Below the pieces are notes generated by a model. That model was not told where the DNA came from. It was given only the letters and a program-made list of their open reading frames with translations, and did no database searches. From an uncultured Gammaproteobacteria bacterium (lineage in GTDB: Bacteria; Pseudomonadota; Gammaproteobacteria; CAWCPV01), in contig CAWCPV010000004.1 of assembly GCA_963797555.1 (NCBI GenBank), forward strand, positions 480,001 through 544,000: a stretch of 64,000 nt of DNA, written 5' to 3'. Shown here piece after piece: positions 2-44,036 of the stretch. Made by a program: the position numbers and the translations under genes. Each line of letters begins with the position of its first letter. Within the stretch, counting starts at the first letter, position 1.

Positions 2-559
2 GTCAGACACCGCCGCCGATCCATCCGTCTGAAGGGCTACGATTATTCGCACGCCGGGGTGTATTTCGTGACCGTCTGCACCCAGGATCGGGCGTGCCTG
101 TTCGGCGAGGCTGTGGACCGCGAAATGCGGTTGAATGCCATGGGCCAGATCGTGGCTGATGAATGGTTGCGGTCGACGCGGATTCGGCAGGAAATCGAAT
201 TGGATGCGTTTGTGGTCATGCCTAATCACATGCACGGCATTGTCGCGATCACCGACCCGGACGTAGTAGGGGCGACCGGCCGGTCGCCCCTACGGTTTGC
301 GGAATCGCCCCAGCCGCGCGGTCCGGGGCGGCATTCGCTGGGCGCTCTGGTCGGCGGATTCAAATCCGCGGTTACCGTCCGGATCAATGTCCTGCGCGGC
401 ACACCGAGTGCGCCGGTCTGGCAACGCAACTACTACGAACACATCATCCGCGACGAGGCATCCTTGCATCCCATTCGGCAGTACATCGTCGATAACCCGC
501 TGCGTTGGGCCGTTGACCGGGAGAATCCAGCCGCCACCACCCCTGAAACCGGAGGATGC

Positions 560-572
<13 letters not shown>
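2..572 (+). mobile_element. REP-associated tyrosine transposase (RAYT, Y1 HUH), 5' end outside window; as written it reads in frame into hsdR
   Basis: Frame 2 reads [31 protein letters not shown] (HUH)..[18 protein letters not shown]. Likely native end is PEDAWRS* at 572 in the shifted frame. Confidence 0.88.
266..293. repeat. Perfect 28-bp GTAG-type REP palindrome inside the RAYT gene
   Basis: GTAGGGGCGACCGGCCGGTCGCCCCTAC is its own reverse complement. Confidence 0.85.
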
Positions 573-3691
<3,119 letters not shown>

Positions 3692-31308: not shown

Positions 31309-34300
31309 TCAAACCTCTGGCGGACGCGGCGGACTGCCGCGCTGCTCGAGGATCGGGCGCAGGAACCTCGCGGTGTGGGAGCCCCTGCTGCGGGCGATGC
31401 CTTCCGGCGTGCCCTGGCTGACCACCTGTCCCCCGCCGTCACCGCCCTCCGGCCCGAGATCGATCACCCAGTCCGCCTCGGCGATGACGTCCAGATTGTG
31501 CTCGATGACCACCACCGTGTTGCCGGCGGCCACCAGACGGTGCAGGACGCGGACCAACTTCTCAACGTCCGCCATGTGCAGTCCGATGGTGGGCTCGTCG
31601 AGGACATACAGAGTCTGGGCGCCAGCCGCGGGCCGCTGCTCTCCCCACGCTTCGGGGCCGGTTTCTCCGGCCCCCGGTCTGGCTTTGGCCAGCTCGGTGA
31701 CCAGCTTGATGCGTTGCGCCTCGCCGCCGGAGAGCGTCGGGCTCGGCTGTCCCAGGGTGAGGTAGCCCAGCCCCACGTCTTGAAGCAGGCGAAGGACGTG
31801 GTGCACCGAAGGCTGCGCGGCGAAGAAGGCCGTCGCTTGGTCCACGCTCATGGCGAGCACCTCGCCGATGCTCTGGTCCTTGAAGCTCACCGCCAGCGTT
31901 TCGGGGTTGAACCGCGCCCCGCGGCAGACCTCGCACAGGACTTTGACGTCCGGGAGGAAGCTCATCTCCATGGTCTTGACGCCCTGGCCCTCGCAGGCCG
32001 CACAGCGTCCGCCCGCCACGTTGAAGGAGAACCGGCCTGGGCCATAGCCGCGCATGCGCGCATCAGGCGTTGCCGCGAACAGCCGCCGGATGGCATCCCA
32101 TAATCCGACATAGGTCGCCGGGCAGGAGCGCGGCGTCTTGCCGATAGGGGTCTGGTCCACCTCCAGGACGCGGCGCAGCGCTTCCCAGCCGCGAACTTCC
32201 CGACACCCGTGCAGACGGGCGGCGGAGCGTGGACGTTGCCCGCGGCGGCTGTCGTGGAGCAGTTGCTTCAGGTTCTCGTGCAGTACCTCCCGTACCAGGG
32301 TGCTCTTGCCGCTTCCGCTGACACCGGTCACGCACACGAGCCTCCTCAGGGGGACGCGGACTTGCAGGTCCTTCAGGTTGTGGAGAGCGGCGCCCGTGAT
32401 CGCGAGATGCGGGTCGGTGTCCGGGTCGGTCGGCCTGCGCTCCATCAGCGGGTGGCGCAAGGGCTCGGCCAGAAACCGTCCGGTCACCGACTCGGGGCTG
32501 CGCATCAGCTCTTCCAGGGTGCCCTCGGCGACGACGCGTCCCCCGTTGACGCCGGCCGCGGGACCGAGATCGACCACGTACTCGGCGCGGCGGATGGTGT
32601 CCTCGTCGTGCTCCACCACCACCACGGTGTTGCCTTTGTCCTCCAGGCGTCCCAGGGTGTCGAGGAGCATCCGGTTGTCGCGGGGGTGCAGGCCGATGGT
32701 GGGCTCGTCCAGGATGTAGCACACGCCCCGCAGGTTGGAGCCCAACTGGGATGCCAGGCGGATGCGCTGGGCCTCGCCGCCGGACAGGCTGGGGGCCGAG
32801 CGCTCCAGTGCGAGATAGGAGAGTCCGACCTCCCTCAGGAAGGCCAGCCGCGACCGCAGCTCGGGGAGGATGTCCCGGGCGATCTCGGCCTCGCGCCCGC
32901 GCAGCCTCAGGGAACGGAAGAACCGCTCCGCGGCCGTCACCGACATCTCGGTCAGCTCCGCGATGGAGCGCTCGCGGAAACGCACCGCCAGAGCCTCCGG
33001 GCGCAGCCGTCGCCCGTGGCAGGCCGAGCATGGCCGCTCCTGACCTTCCCACCAGTCGTTCCACCAGATCTCCTCGCCGCTCTGATCGGCCTCGAAGCCG
33101 GGCAGATCCAGCCCGGTGCCGTAACAGCGCTGGCACCAGCCGTGTTTCGAGTTGTAGGAGAACAGACGCGGGTCCAGGGCCTCGAAGCTACGCCCGCAGC
33201 CCGGGCAGGCCCGCCGGGTGGAGAACAGGGCCTCGCCCACGGTCATCGCATCCGAGGAGGGCGTTCCCTCGCCTCGCCTGCCTCGGCGCGCGCGTGCGCC
33301 CCCGGCTCCTGCGCCGCCCGCCGCCGCCACCCGCACCACCCCCTTGCCCAGGTCCAGGGCGCGCGCCAGCACCCGGCGCAGCTCCGGCTCGGCCCGGGCG
33401 CCTGCCGTGATCTCGCCGACCGGCAGCTCGATATCGTGCTCCTTGAACCGATCCAGCCTGGGCCAGGGGTCGGTAGGCGTCGGCTCGCCGTCCACCCGGA
33501 AGCTGGAAAAACCCTTGGCGGCTGCCCACTTGGCCAAGTCGGTGTAGTAGCCCTTGCGCGCCACCACCAGCGGGGCGAGCAACGACACCGTGCGGCCGCG
33601 GTAGTCGCGCAGGATACGCGCCAGGATCGTCTCGGGCGTCTGGGGCTCGATGGGCAGGTCGCAGTCCGGGCAATATTGGGTCCCCAGCTTGACGAACAGC
33701 AGCCGCAGGAAGTGGTAGATCTCGGTCATCGTGGCCACGGTGCTCTTCCTGCCGCCGCGGCTGGTGCGCTGCTCGATGGCCACCGTCGGCGGGATGCCGA
33801 AGATGGCGTCCACGTCCGGCCGCGAGGCGGGCTGCACGAACTGCCGGGCATAGGCGTTGAGGGACTCCAGGTAGCGCCGTTGGCCCTCCGCGAACAGGAT
33901 GTCGAAGGCCACCGTGCTCTTTCCGGAGCCGGAAACCCCGGTGATGACAGTGAAACGATCCTGCGGGATGCGGATGTCGACGTTCTTGAGGTTGTGCTCC
34001 CGCGCACGGTGGATGGAGACCGAGTTGTCCCTGGCGGGGCCCGCCGGGCCGCCCGTCTCCGCCACCGCGGCCGGTTCGCGCGAGGGCGCCTCGGCCGGCG
34101 GCACCGCACTGGCGCCGATGCCGGCCTGGATTTCGCGCAGCGCACGGCCGGTGTGGCTGGTGGCGTGGGCTGCGACCTCCTGGGGCGTGCCCGTGCACAC
34201 CACCTGGCCGCCCGCGTCGCCACCCTCCGGGCCGAGATCGATGATCCAGTCGGCGGCGCGGATGACCTCCAGGTTGTGCTCGATCACCAGCAGGGAGTGC

Positions 34301-36996
34301 CCCTCGGCAAGCAGCTTACGGAAGGCTCCGAGCAGTTTGGCGATGTCCTCGAAGTGCAGGCCCGTCGTCGGCTCGTCGAACAGGAACAGTGTCGCCCCCC
34401 GGCGCCGCCCACGGGTCTCCGCCAGATGGCCCGCCAGCTTGAGCCGCTGGGCCTCGCCTCCGGATAGCGTCGGCACCGGCTGACCGAGGCGCAGGTAGTC
34501 CAGGCCGACCGCGGCCAGAGGCTGTACCGCGCCCAGGATGTCCGCCCGGTCGGCAAAGAAGCCGACGGCCTCCGACACGGTCATGTCCAGGATGTCGGCG
34601 ACGGACCGGCCCGGCCCGCCGCCGGCGGGGAACAGCTTCACCTCCAGCACCTCGTCGCGGTAGCGCCGGCCGTTGCAGTCCGGGCAGCGCAGGTAGACGT
34701 CGCTCAGGAACTGCATCTCGACGTGCTCGAACCCGTTGCCGCCGCACGTGGGGCAGCGGCCGTTCCCGGAGTTGAAGCTGAACGTGCCGGCGGTGTAGCC
34801 GCGCTCGCGCGCCAGCGGCTCGGCCGCGAACAGCTTGCGGATGGCGTTTAGCGCGCCCACGTAGCTCGCCGGGTTCGATCGTGTGGTCTTGCCGATGGGC
34901 GACTGATCGACCAGCACCACCTCGTGGAGGTACTCGTGCCCCCGAAGGCCCCGGTGCCGCCCCGCCGCCTCCACGGGCCTGCCCTGGAGCTTGCGCAGGG
35001 CGTTGTAGAGCACGTCCTGGACCAGCGTGGACTTCCCGGAGCCGCTCACCCCGGTGACGCACACCAGGCGCTGGAGCGGGATGCGGAGGTCGATGTCCTT
35101 GAGGTTGTGAGCGGCGGCGCCCAGCACCTCCAAGTGAAGGGACGACGGGGCAGGGGGGATGGCTCCAGGGGCCTCGACGGTCCTGCGGCCGCTCAGGTAC
35201 TGCGCCGTCAGGGAGGCATCGGAGCGCACCAGCGCCTGCGGGGTGCCGAAGAACACCACCTCGCCGCCGCGCTCGCCGGGGCCGGGCCCCAGGTCCAGAA
35301 CGCGGTCTGCGGCGAGCATGACCTGGGGGTCGTGCTCCACCACGATGAGCGAGTTTCCCGCGTCGCGCAGGCGGTGCAGAACGCCGATGACCCTTCCCAT
35401 GTCCCGGGGGTGCAGCCCGATGCTGGGCTCGTCCAGCACGAAGAGCGTGTTCACGAGCGAGGTGCCCAGGGCCGTGGTGAGGTTGATGCGCTGCACCTCC
35501 CCGCCGCTCAGGGTGCGGGATTGGCGGTCCAGGGTGAGGTAGCCGAGGCCGACGTCCGCGAGATAGCCGAGGCGGGCGCGGATTTCCCCGAGCAGCAGCT
35601 CGGTGGCCTGGTCCAGCGGGGCGGGCAGGTGCAGGCTCGCGAAGAACTCGCGGCAGCGGGCGATAGCCAGGCACACCAGGTCGTGAAGCGTCAGGCCGGG
35701 CAGGGAGGCGTAAGCCTCGGGCGGGATCTCCAAGCCTGCCGGCCGGAACCGGTCCGCGGCGGGCAGCACCCGGCCGGCGTCCTCCCGGGTGCCGAGCCTC
35801 CACAGCAAAGCCTCGGGCTTGAGGCGTGCTCCCCGGCAGGCCGGGCACAGCTCGTAGGCCCGGTACTTGGAGAGCAGCACCCGGATGTGCATCTTGTAGC
35901 TCTTGGTCTCCAGCCACTGGAAGAAGCGGTTCACCCCGTACCAGAGGTTGTCCTCCCAGTCCCCCTCGCCCTCCAGCACCCAGCGCCGGTGCTCGGCTTC
36001 GAGATCCCGCCACGGCACGTCGGTCGGCACGCCGCGCTTCCGCGCGAAGCGCCGCAAATCCGCCTGACACTCGCGGTAGCTCTCGGTCTGCCACGGCTTG
36101 ACGGCGCCGTCCGAGAGCGTCTTCGATTCGTCCGGGACCACCAGGTCGTGGTCGATGCCCATGGTGCGGCCGAAGCCGCGGCAGGTCTCGCAGGCCCCGA
36201 TGGGCGAGTTGAAGGAGAACAGGTTGGGGACCGGGTCGCGGCAATGGAGGTCGCAGTCCGGGCAGTGCAGGTCCGCCGAGAAGCGCCAGGGGAGGGCGGA
36301 TGCGCCTTCGTCGTCCACGGAGTAAACCGCCACCCGGCCGCGCCCGTGGTGGAGCGCGGCTTCCAATGCCTCGACGATGCGCGAGCGGCGCTCGGCCGAA
36401 AGGCGCACCCGGTCCTGGACGACTTCGAGCAGCCCCGGGCTGCGCCGGTGGATCTTCGTGTAGCCCTGCTTCTCCAGCAGGGCGATCACTTCCGGCTCGG
36501 TGAAGCTCTCGGGGACCCGCACCGGAAAGGTGATCAGGGCGCGCGGCTGCCTTCCCCCCTCAGCCTTCGAGAGCAGCGCCTCGAAGATCGAATCCGGCGT
36601 ATCCCGGCGCACCGGCCGGCCGCATCCCCGGCAGAAAAGCTGCGCCGCCCGCGCGAACAGCAGCTTCAGGTGGTCGTTCAGCTCCGTCATCGTGCCCACG
36701 GTGGAGCGCGAGGTACGCACCGGGTTGGTCTGGTCGATGGCGATGGCGGGCGGGATGCCATCGATGCGCTCCGCCTGCGGCTTGTCCATGCGGTCGAGGA
36801 ACTGGCGGGCGTAGGGAGAGAAGGTCTCCACGTAGCGCCGCTGCCCCTCGGCGTAGACGGTGTCGAAGGCGAGCGACGACTTGCCCGAGCCGCTGACGCC
36901 GGTCACCACGATCAGCTCGCCGAGCGGAAGCTCCAGATCCAAGCCCTTCAGGTTGTTCTGGCGGGCGCCCCGGATGAGGATGGAATGGCTGCTCAA
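31309..36996 (-). CDS. uvrA: Double-length (four ATPase domain) UvrA
   Basis: 1895 aa, four GVSGSGKS and four LSGGE motifs, zinc fingers. Confidence 0.95.
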   Translation of the reverse strand: MSSHSILIRGARQNNLKGLDLELPLGELIVVTGVSGSGKSSLAFDTVYAEGQRRYVETFSPYARQFLDRMDKPQAERIDGIPPAIAIDQTNPVRTSRSTVGTMTELNDHLKLLFARAAQLFCRGCGRPVRRDTPDSIFEALLSKAEGGRQPRALITFPVRVPESFTEPEVIALLEKQGYTKIHRRSPGLLEVVQDRVRLSAERRSRIVEALEAALHHGRGRVAVYSVDDEGASALPWRFSADLHCPDCDLHCRDPVPNLFSFNSPIGACETCRGFGRTMGIDHDLVVPDESKTLSDGAVKPWQTESYRECQADLRRFARKRGVPTDVPWRDLEAEHRRWVLEGEGDWEDNLWYGVNRFFQWLETKSYKMHIRVLLSKYRAYELCPACRGARLKPEALLWRLGTREDAGRVLPAADRFRPAGLEIPPEAYASLPGLTLHDLVCLAIARCREFFASLHLPAPLDQATELLLGEIRARLGYLADVGLGYLTLDRQSRTLSGGEVQRINLTTALGTSLVNTLFVLDEPSIGLHPRDMGRVIGVLHRLRDAGNSLIVVEHDPQVMLAADRVLDLGPGPGERGGEVVFFGTPQALVRSDASLTAQYLSGRRTVEAPGAIPPAPSSLHLEVLGAAAHNLKDIDLRIPLQRLVCVTGVSGSGKSTLVQDVLYNALRKLQGRPVEAAGRHRGLRGHEYLHEVVLVDQSPIGKTTRSNPASYVGALNAIRKLFAAEPLARERGYTAGTFSFNSGNGRCPTCGGNGFEHVEMQFLSDVYLRCPDCNGRRYRDEVLEVKLFPAGGGPGRSVADILDMTVSEAVGFFADRADILGAVQPLAAVGLDYLRLGQPVPTLSGGEAQRLKLAGHLAETRGRRRGATLFLFDEPTTGLHFEDIAKLLGAFRKLLAEGHSLLVIEHNLEVIRAADWIIDLGPEGGDAGGQVVCTGTPQEVAAHATSHTGRALREIQAGIGASAVPPAEAPSREPAAVAETGGPAGPARDNSVSIHRAREHNLKNVDIRIPQDRFTVITGVSGSGKSTVAFDILFAEGQRRYLESLNAYARQFVQPASRPDVDAIFGIPPTVAIEQRTSRGGRKSTVATMTEIYHFLRLLFVKLGTQYCPDCDLPIEPQTPETILARILRDYRGRTVSLLAPLVVARKGYYTDLAKWAAAKGFSSFRVDGEPTPTDPWPRLDRFKEHDIELPVGEITAGARAEPELRRVLARALDLGKGVVRVAAAGGAGAGGARARRGRRGEGTPSSDAMTVGEALFSTRRACPGCGRSFEALDPRLFSYNSKHGWCQRCYGTGLDLPGFEADQSGEEIWWNDWWEGQERPCSACHGRRLRPEALAVRFRERSIAELTEMSVTAAERFFRSLRLRGREAEIARDILPELRSRLAFLREVGLSYLALERSAPSLSGGEAQRIRLASQLGSNLRGVCYILDEPTIGLHPRDNRMLLDTLGRLEDKGNTVVVVEHDEDTIRRAEYVVDLGPAAGVNGGRVVAEGTLEELMRSPESVTGRFLAEPLRHPLMERRPTDPDTDPHLAITGAALHNLKDLQVRVPLRRLVCVTGVSGSGKSTLVREVLHENLKQLLHDSRRGQRPRSAARLHGCREVRGWEALRRVLEVDQTPIGKTPRSCPATYVGLWDAIRRLFAATPDARMRGYGPGRFSFNVAGGRCAACEGQGVKTMEMSFLPDVKVLCEVCRGARFNPETLAVSFKDQSIGEVLAMSVDQATAFFAAQPSVHHVLRLLQDVGLGYLTLGQPSPTLSGGEAQRIKLVTELAKARPGAGETGPEAWGEQRPAAGAQTLYVLDEPTIGLHMADVEKLVRVLHRLVAAGNTVVVIEHNLDVIAEADWVIDLGPEGGDGGGQVVSQGTPEGIARSRGSHTARFLRPILEQRGSPPRPPEV

Positions 36997-37228
36997 GCTG
37001 AGGTGTCGACGGAGTTGGAGGCACTCACGAGAAGGGATCCTCCCACGCGGGAGGATGCGTACGGCACCGGGCAGTGTAAGGGAAATGGAGGCCGGTTAGC
37101 GAGGAGGGCTGTAGCGCCAAAAGTTGTAATATCCCCTGGGCCGAGGTGCGCCAGCGTGCCGGAGTCGGTACCACAGCGCTCAACCCGTATGGTAGTCTTC
37201 GAAGAACACACTGAACACAGAGAACACC

Positions 37229-37507
37229 ATGCAAAGCAAAGGCAAGAGCGTGTCCGTACGGCTGGACGACGACACCCTGGAGCGCTTGGAAACTCTGGCT
37301 AAGACCATGGATCGTCCCCGCGCCTGGGTGATGGCTCAGGCCATCCGTCAGTATGTGGAGGCCCAGTCCTGGCAGGTCGCGGCCATCCGGCAGGCCACGG
37401 AACGAATTCACAAAGGCGAAGCGAAGTTCGCGGCGCATGAGGAGGTCGAAGCCTGGCTGGAGACCTGGGGTAACGATGATGAGAAGGCGCCCCCGGAGTG
37501 CCGCTGA
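37229..37507 (+). CDS. CopG/RHH antitoxin
   Basis: VSVRLDDDTLERLETLAKTMDRPRAWV..AIRQY. Confidence 0.85.
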   Translation: MQSKGKSVSVRLDDDTLERLETLAKTMDRPRAWVMAQAIRQYVEAQSWQVAAIRQATERIHKGEAKFAAHEEVEAWLETWGNDDEKAPPECR

Positions 37508-37788
37508 GCCTGCGTTGGCAAGAAGACGCTATCGCTGACCTTCAGGCACTGCGAGCCTACATCGCACAGGATAACCCGCGGGCCGCATCACGGGTTGCAA
37601 GGCAAATACGGGAAGCGGTTGGCCGGCTGCGCGATCAACCAGCGATGGGCAGACTCGGCAGGGTGCCGAATACACGCGAGTGGGTGGTCCCCGGAACTCC
37701 CTACGTACTGGCTTACCGGGTGGACGAGAGGATGCTTACAGTGCTCCGGCTGCTTCACGGGGCGATGCGATGGCCGATGTCATTCTGA
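37498..37788 (+). CDS. RelE/ParE toxin
   Basis: YIAQDNPRAA..PAMGRLGRVPNTRE..PYVLAYRV..LLHGAMRWP. Confidence 0.88.
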   Translation: MPLSLRWQEDAIADLQALRAYIAQDNPRAASRVARQIREAVGRLRDQPAMGRLGRVPNTREWVVPGTPYVLAYRVDERMLTVLRLLHGAMRWPMSF

Positions 37789-37847
37789 CGGAACTCGTCG
37801 CGAGGATTAGCGATAGTGTAGATTTGCCGACGCACGACATCTCATGC

Positions 37848-37878
37848 GGCGCAATACCCTGAGGCTATTGCGCCCTAC
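37848..37878 (-). repeat. GTAG-type REP hairpin
   Basis: Minus strand GTAG-GGCGCAATA-loop-TATTGCGCC. Confidence 0.55.
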
Positions 37879-38150
37879 GCGGGGTGTAACGCCAAGGTCG
37901 TAACGTCCCCTGGGCCAAGGTATCCGCACGCTGTGGTGCCGCGGTGCCAAGCATACCGACAAGGGTCCACCCCGTGCGTCTCATTTCGCTCCGGCGAAAT
38001 GTTTTCCGTGAGTGCCTTCATCCAGGTGGACACGTGCGACCCAGCGGGACTGGAGCGGTGGTCTGCGCCGTTGCGCCCGACCGCCTTGATCGCTTTGCGC
38101 GCGGCCACTACACTGCTCCCACCCTAGGCCGGTGAATTTCGAATCCTTTC

Positions 38151-39719
38151 ATGATGTCTGCTAAAGGGTTATGGTCTTCAGAGGTCGAAGCACTTGAAAC
38201 GGCGGTGGAAGAGGCTGCGCGCTCAACGGAAAAGGGTGTTGAACGGTTCGTTGAACCAGCGCATGGAGTACTTCGCCGGGCTGTCTCCGCGCGGAATCAC
38301 CTGATCTTCGGACGCCGCGGGTCCGGGAAGTATAGTCTCCTCCGGAAAGCCTGTGCAGAGCTCACGGTCCAGCGGCGACCAATTGCCTACGTGGACTTGG
38401 AGCCGTTCAAGGGCCATAGCTATCCAGATGTCCTGCTCAGCGTCTTAATCGAAGCCTTCGAGCGGTTTGCCGAATGGCTAGAAACTGCGGCAGTCAATCC
38501 CGCTCACAAGGCCTCCTTTTGGAAGAGGCTCTTTGGCACGAAACCGAAGCAGCCGCCCTTAAACCGGAAAGAAGCGGATAGGCTCGCCACCCAGCTCAGG
38601 TCCAAGGTAAGAGAGCTGGAAGCCGAATTACATCGACACGACTCGGTCCAAACGGAGGCGCTGGATCGGCTGGAAGCACAGAAGAATTCTGGCTCATCGA
38701 TCGGTGGACATGTTGGCACCGAACGGTTGCAAGTTCAGGCGGGGGCGAAGCAAGGCCAAAGCCACTTGGCGACGCGGGAAGTACGGCGCACATTTGCCGA
38801 CAAAAAGAGGGACTTCCTTCATCGTCACATCCAGGAATACCGACAGCTATTTCGAAGCATCTCAGAATTGGCTTGCGGCGATTGCTACCTCGTCTTGGAC
38901 GACGCGTACCACATCCGACGAGCGGACCAACCATTAGTCATCGACTATTTTCACCGCGTTTCAAAGGGAAACAGGCTGTGGCTCAAGATTGGAACAATAA
39001 GGCATCGCTCGAGTTGGTACGTGAACGGCGATCCTCCCACCGGCATGAAAATTGGCGATGACGCCGATGAAATAAGTCTTGACCTGAGCCTAGAAAAGTT
39101 TCGCAATACTCGCGATTTTCTTCTCCAGATCATAGATGGCTTCTTCAAGGCCTGTGAGTTGAGCCGCAGGGATCTTGTGACCGATGGCGCGGTTGACCGG
39201 CTTGTACTCGCGAGCGGGGGTGTTGCGAGAGACTTCCTCGGTATCTTTCGCCGGGGCATCGACCAGGCGCGAGAGCGGCACGATGATAAGCGGCCCAAGT
39301 TGAACGCTGAAGATGTCAACAATGCCGCCGGTGAGTATGACAAGTCGAAACAGCAAGAATTCCGTCGCGATACCTCCGAAGATATTTCTGAGCTAGAGAT
39401 CGAATTCGGGAGAATCCGCGACTTCTGTACTCGGCGGACCAAGAAGAACGTGTTTCTAGTAGACAAGGACTCACCAGGAACTTTTCGTGATCGATTGGAG
39501 GAACTTGTAGACTTGCGCCTAGTTCACAGAGTGAACTCTCGCGTGACCGTCAGTGGTAGGAAGAGCAAGCTGTACGAAGCTTTCATGCTTGACATCAGTC
39601 AATACACGGCTGCACGCAAGATCAGGGATTTCGAGATTATCGAATTCTGGCGCCAAGATCGGCGTGACCGCATTCGGCTGTTATCGATCATCTGCGAGCC
39701 GGAGGGGGCCTCCGTTTGA
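38151..39719 (+). CDS. Uncharacterised P-loop ATPase
   Basis: HLIFGRRGSGKY (Walker A), YLVLDDAY (Walker B), SGGVARDFL; visibly lower GC than its flanks. Confidence 0.75.
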   Translation: MMSAKGLWSSEVEALETAVEEAARSTEKGVERFVEPAHGVLRRAVSARNHLIFGRRGSGKYSLLRKACAELTVQRRPIAYVDLEPFKGHSYPDVLLSVLIEAFERFAEWLETAAVNPAHKASFWKRLFGTKPKQPPLNRKEADRLATQLRSKVRELEAELHRHDSVQTEALDRLEAQKNSGSSIGGHVGTERLQVQAGAKQGQSHLATREVRRTFADKKRDFLHRHIQEYRQLFRSISELACGDCYLVLDDAYHIRRADQPLVIDYFHRVSKGNRLWLKIGTIRHRSSWYVNGDPPTGMKIGDDADEISLDLSLEKFRNTRDFLLQIIDGFFKACELSRRDLVTDGAVDRLVLASGGVARDFLGIFRRGIDQARERHDDKRPKLNAEDVNNAAGEYDKSKQQEFRRDTSEDISELEIEFGRIRDFCTRRTKKNVFLVDKDSPGTFRDRLEELVDLRLVHRVNSRVTVSGRKSKLYEAFMLDISQYTAARKIRDFEIIEFWRQDRRDRIRLLSIICEPEGASV

Positions 39720-40202
39720 ATTCGGACCCGGCTCCGCTCGGCGACCGTGGGGACGGTTTGTGCGGGGACTACGGCGCGAAATGCTGGAAGCCTGCGCCAC
39801 CGCCCCTTAGAGCTATCGGGGGATCTCGTTGCCCATCCGGCTGCTATATTGCGAGGGCCAGCCCTACTGCGGTCACTGCAAGACGGGCACTTCGACAGCC
39901 TCAGGACAGGGCATGGGACCAGACTGGCGCGATGTCTCCTCCATTACCGGCAGGAAGCTATACCGGTACTCGAGGCCGCAGAGGACACCAACGGATCCCG
40001 TACGCCGCGCTGGCGCAATAATTCTACAACTGGTCCAGCGCCGCATGCACCGCGAGGTCCGGCGGCCAGCAGATGTGCTGTTGTGCCGATGGGGTTCCTG
40101 AGTCGCCATGGTGCCGTTCCCCGCCCAGGCGGGAGTTACTGCCCTCCCTGAGCGCGGCAACGCGGATCGGATCGGTGAGGGACTGTGCAGACCGCGTAGG
40201 GC

Positions 40203-40443
40203 GAGGCGCCTCGGGGCTCACGCCCGGGAGGCGCCTCTATTTTGTATATGCCCGACGGGCTGCCCCGGAGGGCCTTCCGTGCGGACGGGACTCGCCTGCG
40301 CCATCTTCAACCCTTCGCCTCGGGCCGCAAACCGTGGTCGGCGGCCATTTCCGGAAGCGCTGCCCGGGCCGGTGAGGGTGGGGGCGCCCGCAACCGGTCG
40401 GTGGACAACACACGAGACGACCGGCGCCGTTGAAGGGGGGTAA
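40203..40443 (-). ncRNA. Structured trailer/spacer of DGR template RNA
   Basis: Non-coding, hairpin-rich (CCGGTCG..CGACCGG), ends in GAGGCGCCTC..GAGGCGCCTC stem; directly 3' of the TR. Confidence 0.55.
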
Positions 40444-40579
40444 AGATGTGGGACGCGCACACCAGCCGAAAACCCAGATTGTCGTTGCGGTTGTCGGGGG
40501 TGTTGTGGTTGCGGTAAGCCGCGCGCGCGTTGTCCGGATTGTTGTTCCAGGAGCCGCCGCGCACCACCCGTTGCTCGTT
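40444..40579 (-). repeat. DGR template repeat (TR)
   Basis: AAC-rich; conceptually [40 protein letters not shown]; matches the VR except at adenines. Confidence 0.95.
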
Positions 40580-40614
40580 GCCAGGGAGCCCCACCGGCCG
40601 AGGCCGGCGCGATG

Positions 40615-40643
40615 ATTGTGCCACGATCCCGGCGAGCCCGCAA
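40615..40643 (-). promoter_or_regulatory. Putative promoter for the TR RNA
   Basis: TTGCGG-17 nt-CACAAT with extended -10 TG. Confidence 0.5.
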
Positions 40644-40654
40644 AAAATCGCGCG

Positions 40655-40691
40655 GAGCGCGCTGCGCGCGCTCAATGCCGCTCACGCGGCA
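40655..40691 (-). promoter_or_regulatory. Two GC hairpins downstream of the VR (DGR target-recognition cruciforms)
   Basis: TGCCGC-GTGA-GCGGCA and GAGCGCGC-GCA-GCGCGCTC just after the target stop codon. Confidence 0.75.
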
Positions 40692-40706
40692 CCCAGTGGT
40701 CAGGGA

Positions 40707-43700
40707 TCAGGAGATGGGGGACGCGCACACCAGCCGAAAACCCAGACTGACGTCGCGGGCGCTCGGGGGGGTCGAGGCAGCGGCAAGCCGCGCGCGCGTA
40801 GGCCGGATTGACGTCCCAGGAGCCGCCGCGCACCACCCGAAGCACGCCTGACTCCGGCCCCCGGGGATTGTCCCGCGGGCTGCGGGCATAGTAGCCGGCG
40901 TCGTACCAATCCTCGACCCACTCCCAGACATTGCCCGCCATCTCATGGCAGCCGTACGGGCTGGCGCCGGCCGGATAGTGCCCGACGGGGGTCGTCCCGC
41001 GCCCGGAGACGTTGCACTTGTTGCCGTCCCAGCGCTCTCCCCAGGGGTAGCGGCGAGCGTCCGTGCCGCGGGCGGCCTTCTCCCACTGCGCCTCGGTGGG
41101 CAGCCGCTTGCCGCACCACTCGGCGTAGGCGCGGGCATCGTCCCAGGTCACGTTGACCACCGGGTGGCGCTCTTTGCCGGGCGCAAAGGCGCCGTGCCAG
41201 TCGCCCGCGGCCCGGTAGCCGGTCTCCTCGACGAAGCGGGCGTACTGGGCGTTGGCGACGGGGAACCGGTCAATCCAGTACTCGGCCAGGACGGCAGTGT
41301 GTTGTGGCCTCTCGTCGGCGGAGTCGCTGTCGCTGCCCATCCGGAACTCGCCCGCGGGCACGTGGACCAGGGGGTGGCCGAGCCTCTCCAAGAGGTCGAG
41401 GATGCGCGCGCGCAGGTGGGGGGCGGCGCGGGGCAGCTCGGCGTGCAGCAGGCGCAGGATGCGGCCCTGGTCGGCGAACAGCCTGGCTTCCGTGGCCTGG
41501 TCCGCCCCCTGGGTGAGGGCGAGCAACGCAGCAAGCGCCACTGCGGCCTCCACGCCCTCGCTCGAAACGGCATCGGCGAGGAACGCCTTCGCCCCCCAGC
41601 CAGAGAACGTCCGCCAGGGCGTCCGCCGCCGTCCTGGCGCCGGGCCGGTTCCTGCTGAACCAGGCCCTGCAGGTCGCCGACGATGGCCTCGGCGCTGCGG
41701 CGAAAGCTCGCGGTGTCCTGGGGGCGGGCGTCAGCGAGGCAGCCCGCGGCGAGCAGCAGATCCGTTTCGCGAAACCGTTCCAGGAGGAGTGTGGCATCGC
41801 CCTCCAGCCCGGCATAGAGCCGGATGACCTCCCGCCACCAGTCCTCCCCGGCATGGGCGAGCAGCGCCTCGGCGTCCCCGCGCTGGCGAAAGGCGCGTGC
41901 GGTGAAGAACTCCTGGAAGGTCAGGTGCACGAAGTCGTAGGAAATGCGAGATTTCTGGCGCAGCAGGCCGGTGTGGCGCATCAGCTCCTCGAGCAATTCG
42001 CCCGGGTCCGCCCCGCCGCAGCCGCAGGCGGGCAGGGCATCTTCGAGTGCTGCCAGCAGCCCGGCAAGCTCGAACACTCGCGTGCCCGCCTGGTGAAAGC
42101 GCGCGGCCACCTCGGTCAGGATCGCTTGCTGCTGCGCCGGGGAAAAGCGCGGCGCCCGCGTGACACCCCGCCGGCGGTCCCACTCGGCGGTGAGCAGCCC
42201 GACGCACTCCTCGTAGACCACCGCCCGGCGCTCCGGCAGGTCCCAGCGGTTCTCGTAGAGCAGCGTCATCAGGGACAGCAGCAGCGGGTTGCTCGCCAGG
42301 GCCCGCAGGCGCGGGCTGCGCCCGAGCGCCTGCAGCAGCCCCTCCACACGGCGCTCGCGCGCCTGCGCATCCGGCGTGTCTGCAAACCAGCCGTGCACGA
42401 AGGCCGCGATCTGCGCCTCCTTGAGCGCCTCCACCTCGAGCTGGCGATACCCGGTGAGGGTCCCCGGAAAACCCGCGATGCGCGAGGTCACCAGGATCTG
42501 ATTGCCCTCGCCGTGGCCGGTGCGCAGGCGGTTGACTTCCGCCACCACGCGCTGGCGCGCCGTCGGGTCCACCACCTCGTCGAGCGCGTCCAGCAGCAGC
42601 ATGCACTCGCCCCGCGCGAGCCTGCGGGCGAGGAAGCGCTCCCCGTGGGCGAACCGTGCACCTGCCAGGGCCTCGGCGAAATGCGCCTCGATCGGCCGGG
42701 CGTCGTGCGCGAGGTGGTTCAGCGTGAGGTAGACGGGCAGCGGGTAGCGCGTGGCGCGCTGCAGCACCCGGCGCAGCAGCGCGAGCGGCGGGCGTATCCA
42801 GTAGGGATAGAGCCAGAGGGCGACGCCGAGGCCCATCAGCCCGACGGCGAGCGGCCCGACCAAACCGGGTGCCGAGACTGTGTAGGCGAGCCCGCCCAAC
42901 GCGAGGCCGATGCCGACCAGGGTCGACTTGCGGCTGAACTTCACGGCGATCAGTAACAGCGCGACGAGGAACAGGACCCACAGTCCCAGGGCCGTGAGCG
43001 GCATGGGCGAGCGGAAGACCTGGGCGAGCCAGACGACCAGGGCCGCCAGGCTCGTGAGAAAACCCGGCCAAAAAACGCTCGCCCCGGACAGGAAACGGAT
43101 CGCGGGCTCCAGGATCCGGGTGAGGCGCGCGGGCATCAGGGCGCGGGCGAAGGGGGCGAGGCGCGGGTCCCGGCGGGCGAGCTGCAGCACCAGGTACTTC
43201 AGCAGGGTGGTCTTGCCGGAGCCGGGGTCCCCTAGCACCACCAGGCGCCGGCCGAGCGCAAGCGCCTCGGCAACGTCCACCGTGCGCCCGGCGTCGGGCA
43301 CGGGCAGCTCGTCGGCAGGGCCGGTCGGGGCATCGGGCTGCAGCGCCGGGGGACTGTGCGCGCCCACCTTGAGGCTCACGTAGATATGCTCCAGGTCGAG
43401 TGGTGTCGCCCGGCCGAGAAAGCTGAACTCGCGGTGCTGGGCCTCCAGGGTGCGCAGGTAGCGTCGAGTGTTGCGCCGCGCGAAAAGGGTGGCCGCGAGC
43501 CATGCCTGCCACCGCTGCCAGAGTCCGGGCGCACCCGCCGGCGGCGCCAGCCGCAAGCGATCCCATTGTCCGACCGAGATACTCACCTGCCGGCCCAGCT
43601 CCGTGGCGCTGTCGAAGAACCCGACCATTTGCTCGCACCCGAGCTCGCGGCGCAAGGCGGCGATGCGCCCGCCCGCCTCGTCGTCCCCGGTGGCGTCCTT

Positions 43701-44036
43701 CCACTCCTCCAGCCACGGCGTGCCGTCCTTCAGCAGGAACAGGCGGCACGGCTTGCCGGTCTCGAGCGCCTTGCGGTACTCCAGCTCGGTGATGGACCTC
43801 TGCCCGGGGTTGCCGTGCTCGGGCGGGGGCACGTAGCCGTAACGCCAGGCGAACAGACCCAGGTACAGGTCACAACCGGCCACGTCGGCCAGGCATTTCA
43901 CGACCGGGCGCTGGTCCGTGGCGACGTAGTCCTCCATCGCGATGACGTCGTGCCCCATCTGCCGCAGGGTGCGGTAGACCGTCTCGCGGTAGTCCTTGAG
44001 GTCAGCGTAGGTGGAGGAGACGTAGATCCTTGCCAT
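40707..44036 (-). CDS. DGR target: DUF4062-NACHT(with TM insert)-helical-FGE-sulfatase/C-lectin protein, with three 1-nt frameshifts as written
   Basis: IYVSSTYADL..SITELEY; GDPGSGKTT, LLLDALDE, VTSR, NPLLL, FVHLTFQEFF; FRMGS..RLPTEAQWEKAARG..MAGNVWEWV..RGGSW. Confidence 0.88.
40712..40848 (-). repeat. DGR variable region (VR)
   Basis: 22 substitutions versus the TR, all at TR adenines, plus one 1-nt insertion at 40762. Confidence 0.95.

Follow-up and report, generated by a model that had tools for sequence, protein, structure and literature searches.

The locus analysed here lies on the minus strand of a 64,000-nucleotide stretch of an uncultured Gammaproteobacteria bacterium (C4:480001-544000 of contig CAWCPV010000004.1, hereafter the window), inside an 846-kb contig. 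It consists of the target gene of a diversity-generating retroelement (DGR), a variable repeat (VR), a template repeat (TR) and a structured spacer following the TR, and is accompanied by neither a reverse transcriptase (RT) nor an Avd. Positions without a prefix are those of the window, and positions elsewhere in the genome carry the contig as a prefix. The target gene (40707-44036) encodes, according to Pfam matches and translation, a DUF4062 domain (~43767-44030, 1e-22), a NACHT-type STAND NTPase with a hydrophobic insert (9.9e-10), a helical linker and an FGE-sulfatase/C-type-lectin-fold domain (~40738-41370, 3.9e-56, residues 77-287 of the frame that enters the VR). The VR occupies the C-terminus of this FGE-fold product, the last 19 codons being out of frame in the assembly.

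The TR (136 nt, 40444-40579) and the VR (137 nt, 40712-40848), both on the minus strand, were compared by global alignment. The two repeats differ by 22 substitutions (A>G 10, A>T 8 and A>C 4), which change 22 of the 31 TR adenines and none of the 105 non-A positions; the hypergeometric probability of such a placement is 1.6e-18. Thirty of the 31 TR adenines fall at codon positions 1-2. The locus thus holds a TR/VR pair differing at TR adenines, as a DGR does. The original prediction had stated that every substitution lies at a TR adenine, which is upheld by the alignment, and had described a DGR target with its VR, which also stands; it had overlooked the extra VR base near 40762, responsible for the frame of the last 19 codons, and the three-frame reading of the target in the assembly. 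The absence of non-A differences (0/22) compares with 0-2 such differences in most VRs linked to an RT.

A complete DGR, referred to as the sister locus, is present 143 kb upstream on the same contig (C4:373.6-380.3 kb). The TR of the window is 80% identical to that of the sister, with 23 non-A differences, and the window VR shows 16 non-A mismatches and a gap to the sister TR as compared to none to its own. The window locus is therefore neither a recent duplicate nor a remote target of the sister locus. The earlier remark that remote targets usually share the TR of a main locus consequently does not apply to this VR.

Several cis elements follow the VR on the minus strand. A hairpin of six pairs with a GUGA loop (40676-40691) is located 20 nt past the VR, after CACTG-type motifs; it was recognised by folding and conservation, is kept in the sister locus and in relatives, and is a candidate target-recognition element. 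It is followed by the terminator-like hairpin of the target gene (40655-40673), which folds ahead of a T run (40642-40647; whole element 40642-40673), so that the two hairpins reported earlier after the target stop are both confirmed. The T run is overlapped by a promoter-like element for the template RNA, TTGCGG-17-CACAAT (40615-40643), with TTGCGG at 40638-40643 and CACAAT at 40615-40620. A generic sigma-70 promoter scan gave 0 sites and did not call this motif, the standing of which therefore derives from its conservation: most of the 19 relatives in the alignment have a TTGCnn-17/18-CAtAcT element in the corresponding position. The candidate promoter proposed before the TR is accordingly present and conserved in relatives, although it fails the generic scan. 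A 5' hairpin of the template RNA (40592-40609), followed by a conserved GGGGC, precedes the TR; its stem letters vary between loci with the pairing kept, as judged by eye. The order of CACTG-type motifs and hairpin after the VR, terminator hairpin and T run, TTGCnn-17/18-CAtAcT, 5' hairpin with GGGGC, and TR is common to most of the 19 relatives.

The TR is followed by the spacer RNA (40203-40443, minus strand), delimited by homology and covariation, in which a variable stretch leads into a conserved core with helices at 40323-40346 and 40250-40286 and a terminal hairpin at 40203-40237 (−36.7 kcal/mol, z −5.3). In an alignment of 25 spacers, the window (40203-40376) being one row, of a family represented also at loci L018, L041 and L043-L065, RNAalifold predicted 35 pairs in four helices, with compensatory change in 16 pairs. 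The paired cells amount to 97.5% as compared to 38-47% when the partner is slid, 88 cells are changed on both sides as compared to 25.6 in shuffles, and the covariation score was reached by 0 of 500 shuffles. The window spacer, itself among the 25 rows, carries all 42 invariant columns and forms three covarying helices. The structured trailer recognised earlier after the TR is thus borne out by covariation, and it is evidently the conserved structured spacer RNA of a DGR lineage of TR-(avd)-RT type. No Rfam 15 match at E<=1 was obtained in the window between 39800 and 41000.

A profile built from 17 RT-linked spacers only, with the window and the sister held out, was used to compare the spacers. 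The window spacer scores 126.4 bits and that of the sister (C4:375k) 121.8 bits, both within the range of the RT-linked training members (102-146 bits). Lower values were recorded for the truncated locus L060 (96.4 bits), the RT-less locus L048 (86.8 bits) and a relic in the same genome, C6:49k (77.8 bits). Two other truncated loci, L057 and L058, score as high as 137.1 and 124.1 bits, respectively, and a good spacer score alone does not, therefore, show that a locus is served by an RT. The window and sister spacers (the latter at C4:376.7-377.07 kb) are 72% identical, in conserved blocks. A genome-wide search with the profile returned three copies, all placed, and a search of the genome with the trailer for RT-linked and RT-less copies, as proposed in the original prediction, is answered by the same three: the sister locus is RT-linked, the others being the window locus and the C6 relic.

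Related loci were collected by an exact-pattern scan for the conserved core with one genome per species, which yielded 23 loci, 21 of them with at least 600 nt downstream; the counts given here represent a biased sample, as the exact core is needed and two Zoogloea metagenome-assembled genomes (MAGs) are near-duplicates. The MAGs concerned are labelled Zoogloea, Accumulibacter, Thauera, Sedimenticola, Chromatiaceae, Ectothiorhodospiraceae, Alphaproteobacteria and Anaerolineae. At class level, a TR/spacer-like match was seen in 7 of 300 genomes, the source genome included, and the genome set compared contains no other genome of the same family or order (one genome each). Downstream of the spacer, 17 of the 21 loci have an opposite-strand avd and then the RT, three have a C-terminal RT remnant without avd, and one has neither. 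The usual order in this lineage is target with VR, TR, spacer, avd on the opposite strand and RT, of which the window locus is without the last two.

The convergent position of avd relative to the RNA unit, together with the strong terminal hairpin, indicates that the TR-spacer RNA of the lineage is most simply explained as a transcript in its own right, about 400 nt long. Since avd is convergent and the RNA gene appears to possess a promoter of its own as well as a terminal hairpin, this RNA would always encounter RT and Avd as separate products. The template RNA gene of the window looks intact in this respect, and all its cis parts look as intact as those of the RT-linked relatives.

Profile searches with RT and Avd models located none of the genome's 19 RVT_1 matches and none of its four PF05635 or eight bAvd matches in C4:480001-544000, and tblastn with the sister RT and the sister Avd likewise detected no remnant of either in the window; the statement that the 64 kb holds no RT or Avd is hence corroborated. 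Homology to the sister and to the relatives ends within a few tens of bases past the terminal hairpin, at about 40200. Where avd and RT sit in relatives, the GC profile shows a low-GC block (36997-39900), the GC content being 0.51-0.62 between ~39900 and ~37000 as compared to ~0.70 on both sides. The flanking 3.35 kb, and with it the block, is unique in the genome, and no insertion sequence (IS) or miniature inverted-repeat transposable element (MITE)-like repeat was found in 36900-40250, where only three short matches (72-89 nt, 74-78% identity) occur. The stop of homology at a unique, repeat-free block indicates that the avd-RT module was deleted or replaced. Loss of the module from the window locus is well supported, and any second convergent target would have gone with it. 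Taken together, this is evidently a real DGR locus, which belongs to a B3-type lineage and has degenerated by the loss of avd and RT.

The low-GC block encodes a ribbon-helix-helix (RHH) protein (37196-37504, plus strand) and a P-loop ATPase of 522 aa (38151-39719, plus strand), the convergent ATPase noticed earlier beside the trailer. The family matches of the ATPase are weak (Sll1717-family 7.6e-07, below its cut-off, and ORC-CDC6-like 1.8e-04), and neither the ATPase nor the target had a convincing match in PADLOC (best E 8.7e-4 and 1.5e-5, respectively). A protein of 1895 aa with a UvrA-like and multiple P-loop domains follows at 31309-36996 on the minus strand (PADLOC mad3 5.6e-156, mad8 3.3e-66). 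A type I restriction R subunit is encoded at 2-3688, and ParE, RHH, PIN (two copies) and HicA genes at 44-51 kb, so that the DGR target is situated within a stretch rich in defence and toxin-antitoxin genes.

The genome as a whole is not without RT, as searches of the complete assembly revealed. DGR-type RT homologues are present at five full-length loci (C4:375k, C3:48k, which is frame-broken, C6:61k, C14:8k and C14:228k) and as a fragment at C6:49.6k, each of them adjoined by an Avd. Only C4:375k, the sister locus, shares the spacer family and the B3 order with the window locus, and a complete locus of the same lineage, which service in trans would require, is thus available in the genome. 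Besides two targets, the sister comprises TR, spacer, Avd and RT; its spacer is followed by avd, encoded on the opposite strand, and avd by the RT on the TR strand. Its RT has 335 aa in one frame and contains the RT motifs IGNLTSQ and YVDD. The sister Avd reaches 83.5 bits with the NCBIfam model DivGenRetAVD (cut-off 80) and 70.9 bits with Pfam bAvd (cut-off 40). The sister VRs are fresh, with 18 A and one non-A difference in one and 23 A and one non-A difference in the other, and the sister target shares only the FGE domain with the window target, at 36% identity.

Other DGR traces were observed in the same genome. The C6 relic (C6:49041-49760), which belongs to the same lineage, retains a TR-like repeat, spacer, opposite-strand avd fragment, RT fragment (aa 252-319) and two drifted VR-like repeats. 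An orphan VR-like repeat at C5:111981-112111 forms the end of an FGE-domain gene with a +1 break, with no TR or spacer nearby; it is closest to the window TR, with 17 A and 8 non-A differences. A further DGR at C3:44.6-49.6 kb is arranged as RT-avd-TR. It has a pair of VRs (16 A + 2 and 14 A + 2 differences), and its RT, which reads in at least three frames, is absent from the list of RVT_1 matches of the genome. The assembly is 84.6% complete and the rpoB/rpoC models match nothing in it; since the assembly misses part of the genome, there may be DGR loci beyond those seen here.

The state of the target gene was analysed by three-frame translation. The DUF4062 and NACHT domains are read from 44036 to ~41632 in one frame and the FGE domain from ~41605 to ~40765 in another, and the tail is back in the first frame up to the TGA stop at 40707-40709. 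In the NACHT-FGE linker two +1 breaks lie 25 nt apart (41606-41631), the 25 nt between them being sensible in the third frame. Related metagenome contigs (~89% identity) are one base shorter at 41606 (two contigs of X1 and one of X2) and at 41631 (one contig each of X1 and X2), as evident from which the window appears to carry single-base insertions at both sites, in addition to the one in the VR. The metagenome contigs compared, short ones drawn from four runs, are relatives at ~85-97% identity, the best public run sharing 0.07 of sampled words; the source organism was not found in public runs, six runs being listed with shares of 0.05-0.07 and no RNA run among the matches listed. Beside these breaks, the hydrophobic insert of the NACHT domain (~42790-43110, minus strand) was observed to comprise ~110-130 residues with several membrane-helix-like segments, and to sit between Walker A (GDPGSGKT) and the rest of the NTPase.

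In the assembly 11 frame breaks were localised, all of them +1 shifts outside long homopolymers. They include those of the window at ~41631, 41606, 40762, 19930 and 22975, and those elsewhere at C14:9492-9617, C3:49477-49605, C14:~280010, C3:~48940 and C5:~112.5 kb. The VRs of two RT-bearing loci (C14:9492-9617 and C3:49477-49605) have a +1 insertion in the same AAC-rich part, so that 3 of the 10 VRs of the genome are affected. An EF-G paralogue and a histidine kinase, both in the window, as well as a dnaE2-like gene, are each interrupted by a +1 shift that does not fall in a homopolymer. The C3 RT, at the first of its breaks, and the FGE gene at C5:112k are likewise shifted by +1. The breaks are strongly clustered: the target has three within 3.3 kb, as compared to two others in the remaining ~60 kb of the window, and the VRs, 1.3 kb in all, also have three. 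Long genes are intact elsewhere (105 frames of at least 900 aa, and an unbroken dnaE), which shows only that errors are not dense. A gauge of the indel rate on rpoB/rpoC gave no value, as neither family model matched anything in this incomplete genome. The uniform +1 pattern suggests insertion-type consensus error rather than natural decay, and the breaks are therefore not counted as proof that the target is a pseudogene. Possible causes of the clustering are heterogeneous VRs upsetting the consensus, cross-mapping of TR and VR in polishing, or rare insertions made by the RT, which are given as 0.1% for the Bordetella enzyme (PMC6182149). The +1 insertions in VRs may mark VRs that are heterogeneous in the sampled population, and frame breaks in this assembly, VRs included, should not be taken as pseudogenes unless reads support them.

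The freshness of the VR was further compared with that of loci lacking a full RT. The ratio of non-A to total differences is 1/11 and 3/23 in L057, 5/24 in L060, and 8/19 and 9/21 in the C6:49k relic; L058 has no A bias in its VR/TR differences. In L048/L042 (G171 contig C339, 445-900), an adenine-poor VR-like repeat, to which a truncated FGE gene is fused by its 3' end, stands at the TR position directly before an otherwise recognisable spacer, with no avd or RT following within 3.7 kb; this looks like a VR/TR recombination which deleted the interval between the two. In an Accumulibacter MAG (G301; L066, L070 and L076) the same spacer lineage is represented by three loci, one complete and the others degenerate, a pattern like that of the present genome and of PB-PSB1; the VRs of its truncated locus, the spacer of which is 76.8% identical, are nearly A-only (10 A + 1 and 20 A + 3). 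In G303, on the other hand, the truncated locus is the only RT trace of the lineage and its VR has drifted (5/24 non-A). This contrast, drawn from very few genomes, is suggestive.

These observations are compatible with a locus that is still served in trans by the enzymes of C4:375k, a reading to which we assign close to an even chance, though not quite one. Since the window locus is neither a duplicate nor a remote target of the sister, the sister proteins, if the locus is active, must use the RNA of the window locus itself. The ~400-nt RNA would still be transcribed on its own and be bound, via the conserved core of its spacer, by the RT-Avd of C4:373.6-380.3 kb; this complex would prime adenine-mutagenic cDNA synthesis on the window TR, and the cDNA would home into the window VR, the locus acting as a non-autonomous template-plus-target cassette. 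In favour of such service are the A-only VR/TR differences, whereas L060, C6:49k, L058 and L048 show drift or fusion; the held-out spacer score in the RT-linked range, with promoter, hairpins and terminator conserved in place; and a helper of the same lineage with an unbroken RT and an Avd above the curated cut-off. It has been described that avd, TR and brt are functional if provided in trans (PMC5758913). Several points weigh against it. The spacer of the helper is only 72% and its TR 80% identical to those of the window, and as the Bordetella phage system requires almost its entire spacer to make cDNA (PMC6182149), cross-recognition is not assured. The presence of the helper has not kept the C6:49k relic of this genome from decaying. 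In the assembly the reading frame of the target is broken three times, and the gene is dead if the breaks are real. The zero non-A change bounds neutral divergence since the last homing at ~1.4% by our estimate, a bound of low power given ~105 sites per repeat, and the comparison of fresh with decayed RT-less loci is based on five or six loci. The earlier suggestion of a satellite borrowing RT and Avd, or of a recent RT loss, is hence well supported as regards the loss of avd and RT and the presence of a helper in the genome, whereas the borrowing itself is a hypothesis.

The locus may also be an inert, recently orphaned relic, in which avd and RT were deleted or replaced not long ago, the VR has stayed as its last diversification left it, and the RNA gene and the target, served by no other RT, are decaying; this is a serious contender, for which the chance is put somewhat under even. 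Relics are common in the lineage, 4 of the 21 related loci being without a complete RT, and the same genome holds the C6:49k relic, the C5:112k orphan repeat and the C3:48k RT with at least two frame breaks. Foreign-looking DNA adjoins the spacer, the helper's spacer and TR are diverged from those of the window, and three breaks fall in 3.3 kb of target with two others in ~60 kb. The uniformity of the breaks speaks rather for consensus error, since all 11 are +1 and involve two VRs of RT-linked loci and three non-DGR genes. Moreover, the non-coding functional parts display no decay, with 0 non-A differences and a spacer score in the RT-linked range, whereas every other RT-less locus examined has decayed somewhat, from 1/11 non-A differences (L057) up to full loss of A bias. 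It is improbable that the missing module reflects an assembly or population artefact, such that cells or strains carry avd-RT after the spacer and the window represents a deleted variant or a chimeric join at ~40200. Long reads of PB-PSB1 do reveal intact and degraded variants of one DGR locus side by side (PMC10907252), the present assembly has consensus errors and is incomplete, and among the contigs of relatives listed none bridges 39259-40011. The site is, however, inside the 846-kb contig, the unique 3.35 kb flanking it offers no repeat to seed a false join, and no unplaced contig has avd-RT beside a copy of the window spacer, the three spacer copies being all placed. The idea that the VR is a remote target of the C4:375k DGR, diversified from that TR with the local TR-like repeat irrelevant, draws on the shared contig and lineage and on the similar post-VR elements; the VR is not identical to the sister TR at non-A sites, with the 16 mismatches and gap given above as compared to none to its own TR, and the idea was rejected as having a negligible chance, barring a further TR in the roughly 15% of the genome that is unassembled.

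The closest known case is Thiohalocapsa sp. PB-PSB1 (Dore et al. 2024, PMC10907252), described as having nine DGR loci in four classes, a class consisting of one complete locus and degenerate loci with RT or TR missing or broken. In-situ diversification is described there at all but one locus, including most of the incomplete loci in nature, and trans activity is proposed where VRs match the TR of another locus. The present genome resembles PB-PSB1 in holding a complete locus beside RT-less ones and in its STAND NTPase (NACHT/nSTAND) targets with a C-terminal C-lectin VR. It differs in that the RT of PB-PSB1 was replaced by MITE-like arrays, as against the unique, repeat-free low-GC flank of the window locus, and in that the RT-less VRs of PB-PSB1 match the TR of the complete locus at all non-A sites, whereas the window VR matches its own TR only. 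The distinguishing point of the window locus thus appears to be that it is RT-less yet has a private TR and spacer, distinct from those of the helper. Full-text searches of the literature brought up no RT-less locus whose TR differs from that of its helper; such cases may be present in the figures and supplements of PMC10907252 and PMC5758913. The novelty is modest, the locus as it stands being an ordinary degenerate DGR of the type already described for PB-PSB1.

The architecture TR-(avd)-RT is termed B3 and is reported to be nearly absent outside genomes of the candidate phyla radiation (Wu et al. 2018, PMC5758913). The sister locus and 17 of the 21 relatives have exactly that order, with avd on the opposite strand. 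Unlike B3 as surveyed, the present lineage occurs in MAGs labelled Gamma-/Betaproteobacteria, Alphaproteobacteria and Anaerolineae, and the window locus is without the (avd) and RT. Remote targets, such as that of the Treponema DGR (PMC5758913), similarly have a VR far from any RT; they are described as having no TR or spacer of their own and as matching the main TR, whereas the window locus has both and does not match the main TR. The structured non-coding spacer after the TR is a feature shared with the BPP-1 DGR RNA (Handa et al. 2018, PMC6182149) and the RT-10 motif (Weinberg et al. 2017, PMC5737381), in which self-primed cDNA synthesis depends on a non-coding structured spacer that separates TR and RT; RNA segments both upstream and downstream are needed for that synthesis (PMC6182149; 10.1101/2023.10.23.563531). 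Unlike those RNAs, to which it has no sequence match, the window RNA has its own predicted promoter and a terminal hairpin, with no RT after it.

The analysis documents the conserved promoter-like element, 5' hairpin and terminal hairpin of a DGR RNA that is predicted to be transcribed independently, and the spacer family, which is without an Rfam match in the region searched, provides an RT-independent probe for TR genes. There is a fair chance, somewhat under even, that one RT-Avd pair serves two different template RNAs, the TR-spacer gene being a free-standing, exchangeable module that can lie as a satellite beside its own target and be kept fresh by a diverged sister DGR. If the window locus is active, what DGR proteins recognise would be a conserved spacer core and not a single private RNA, which would explain genomes that keep one complete DGR beside several RT-less ones and would supply a simple rule for predicting which orphan TR/VR pairs still live. 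One reverse transcriptase could then run several independent diversification programmes in a genome.

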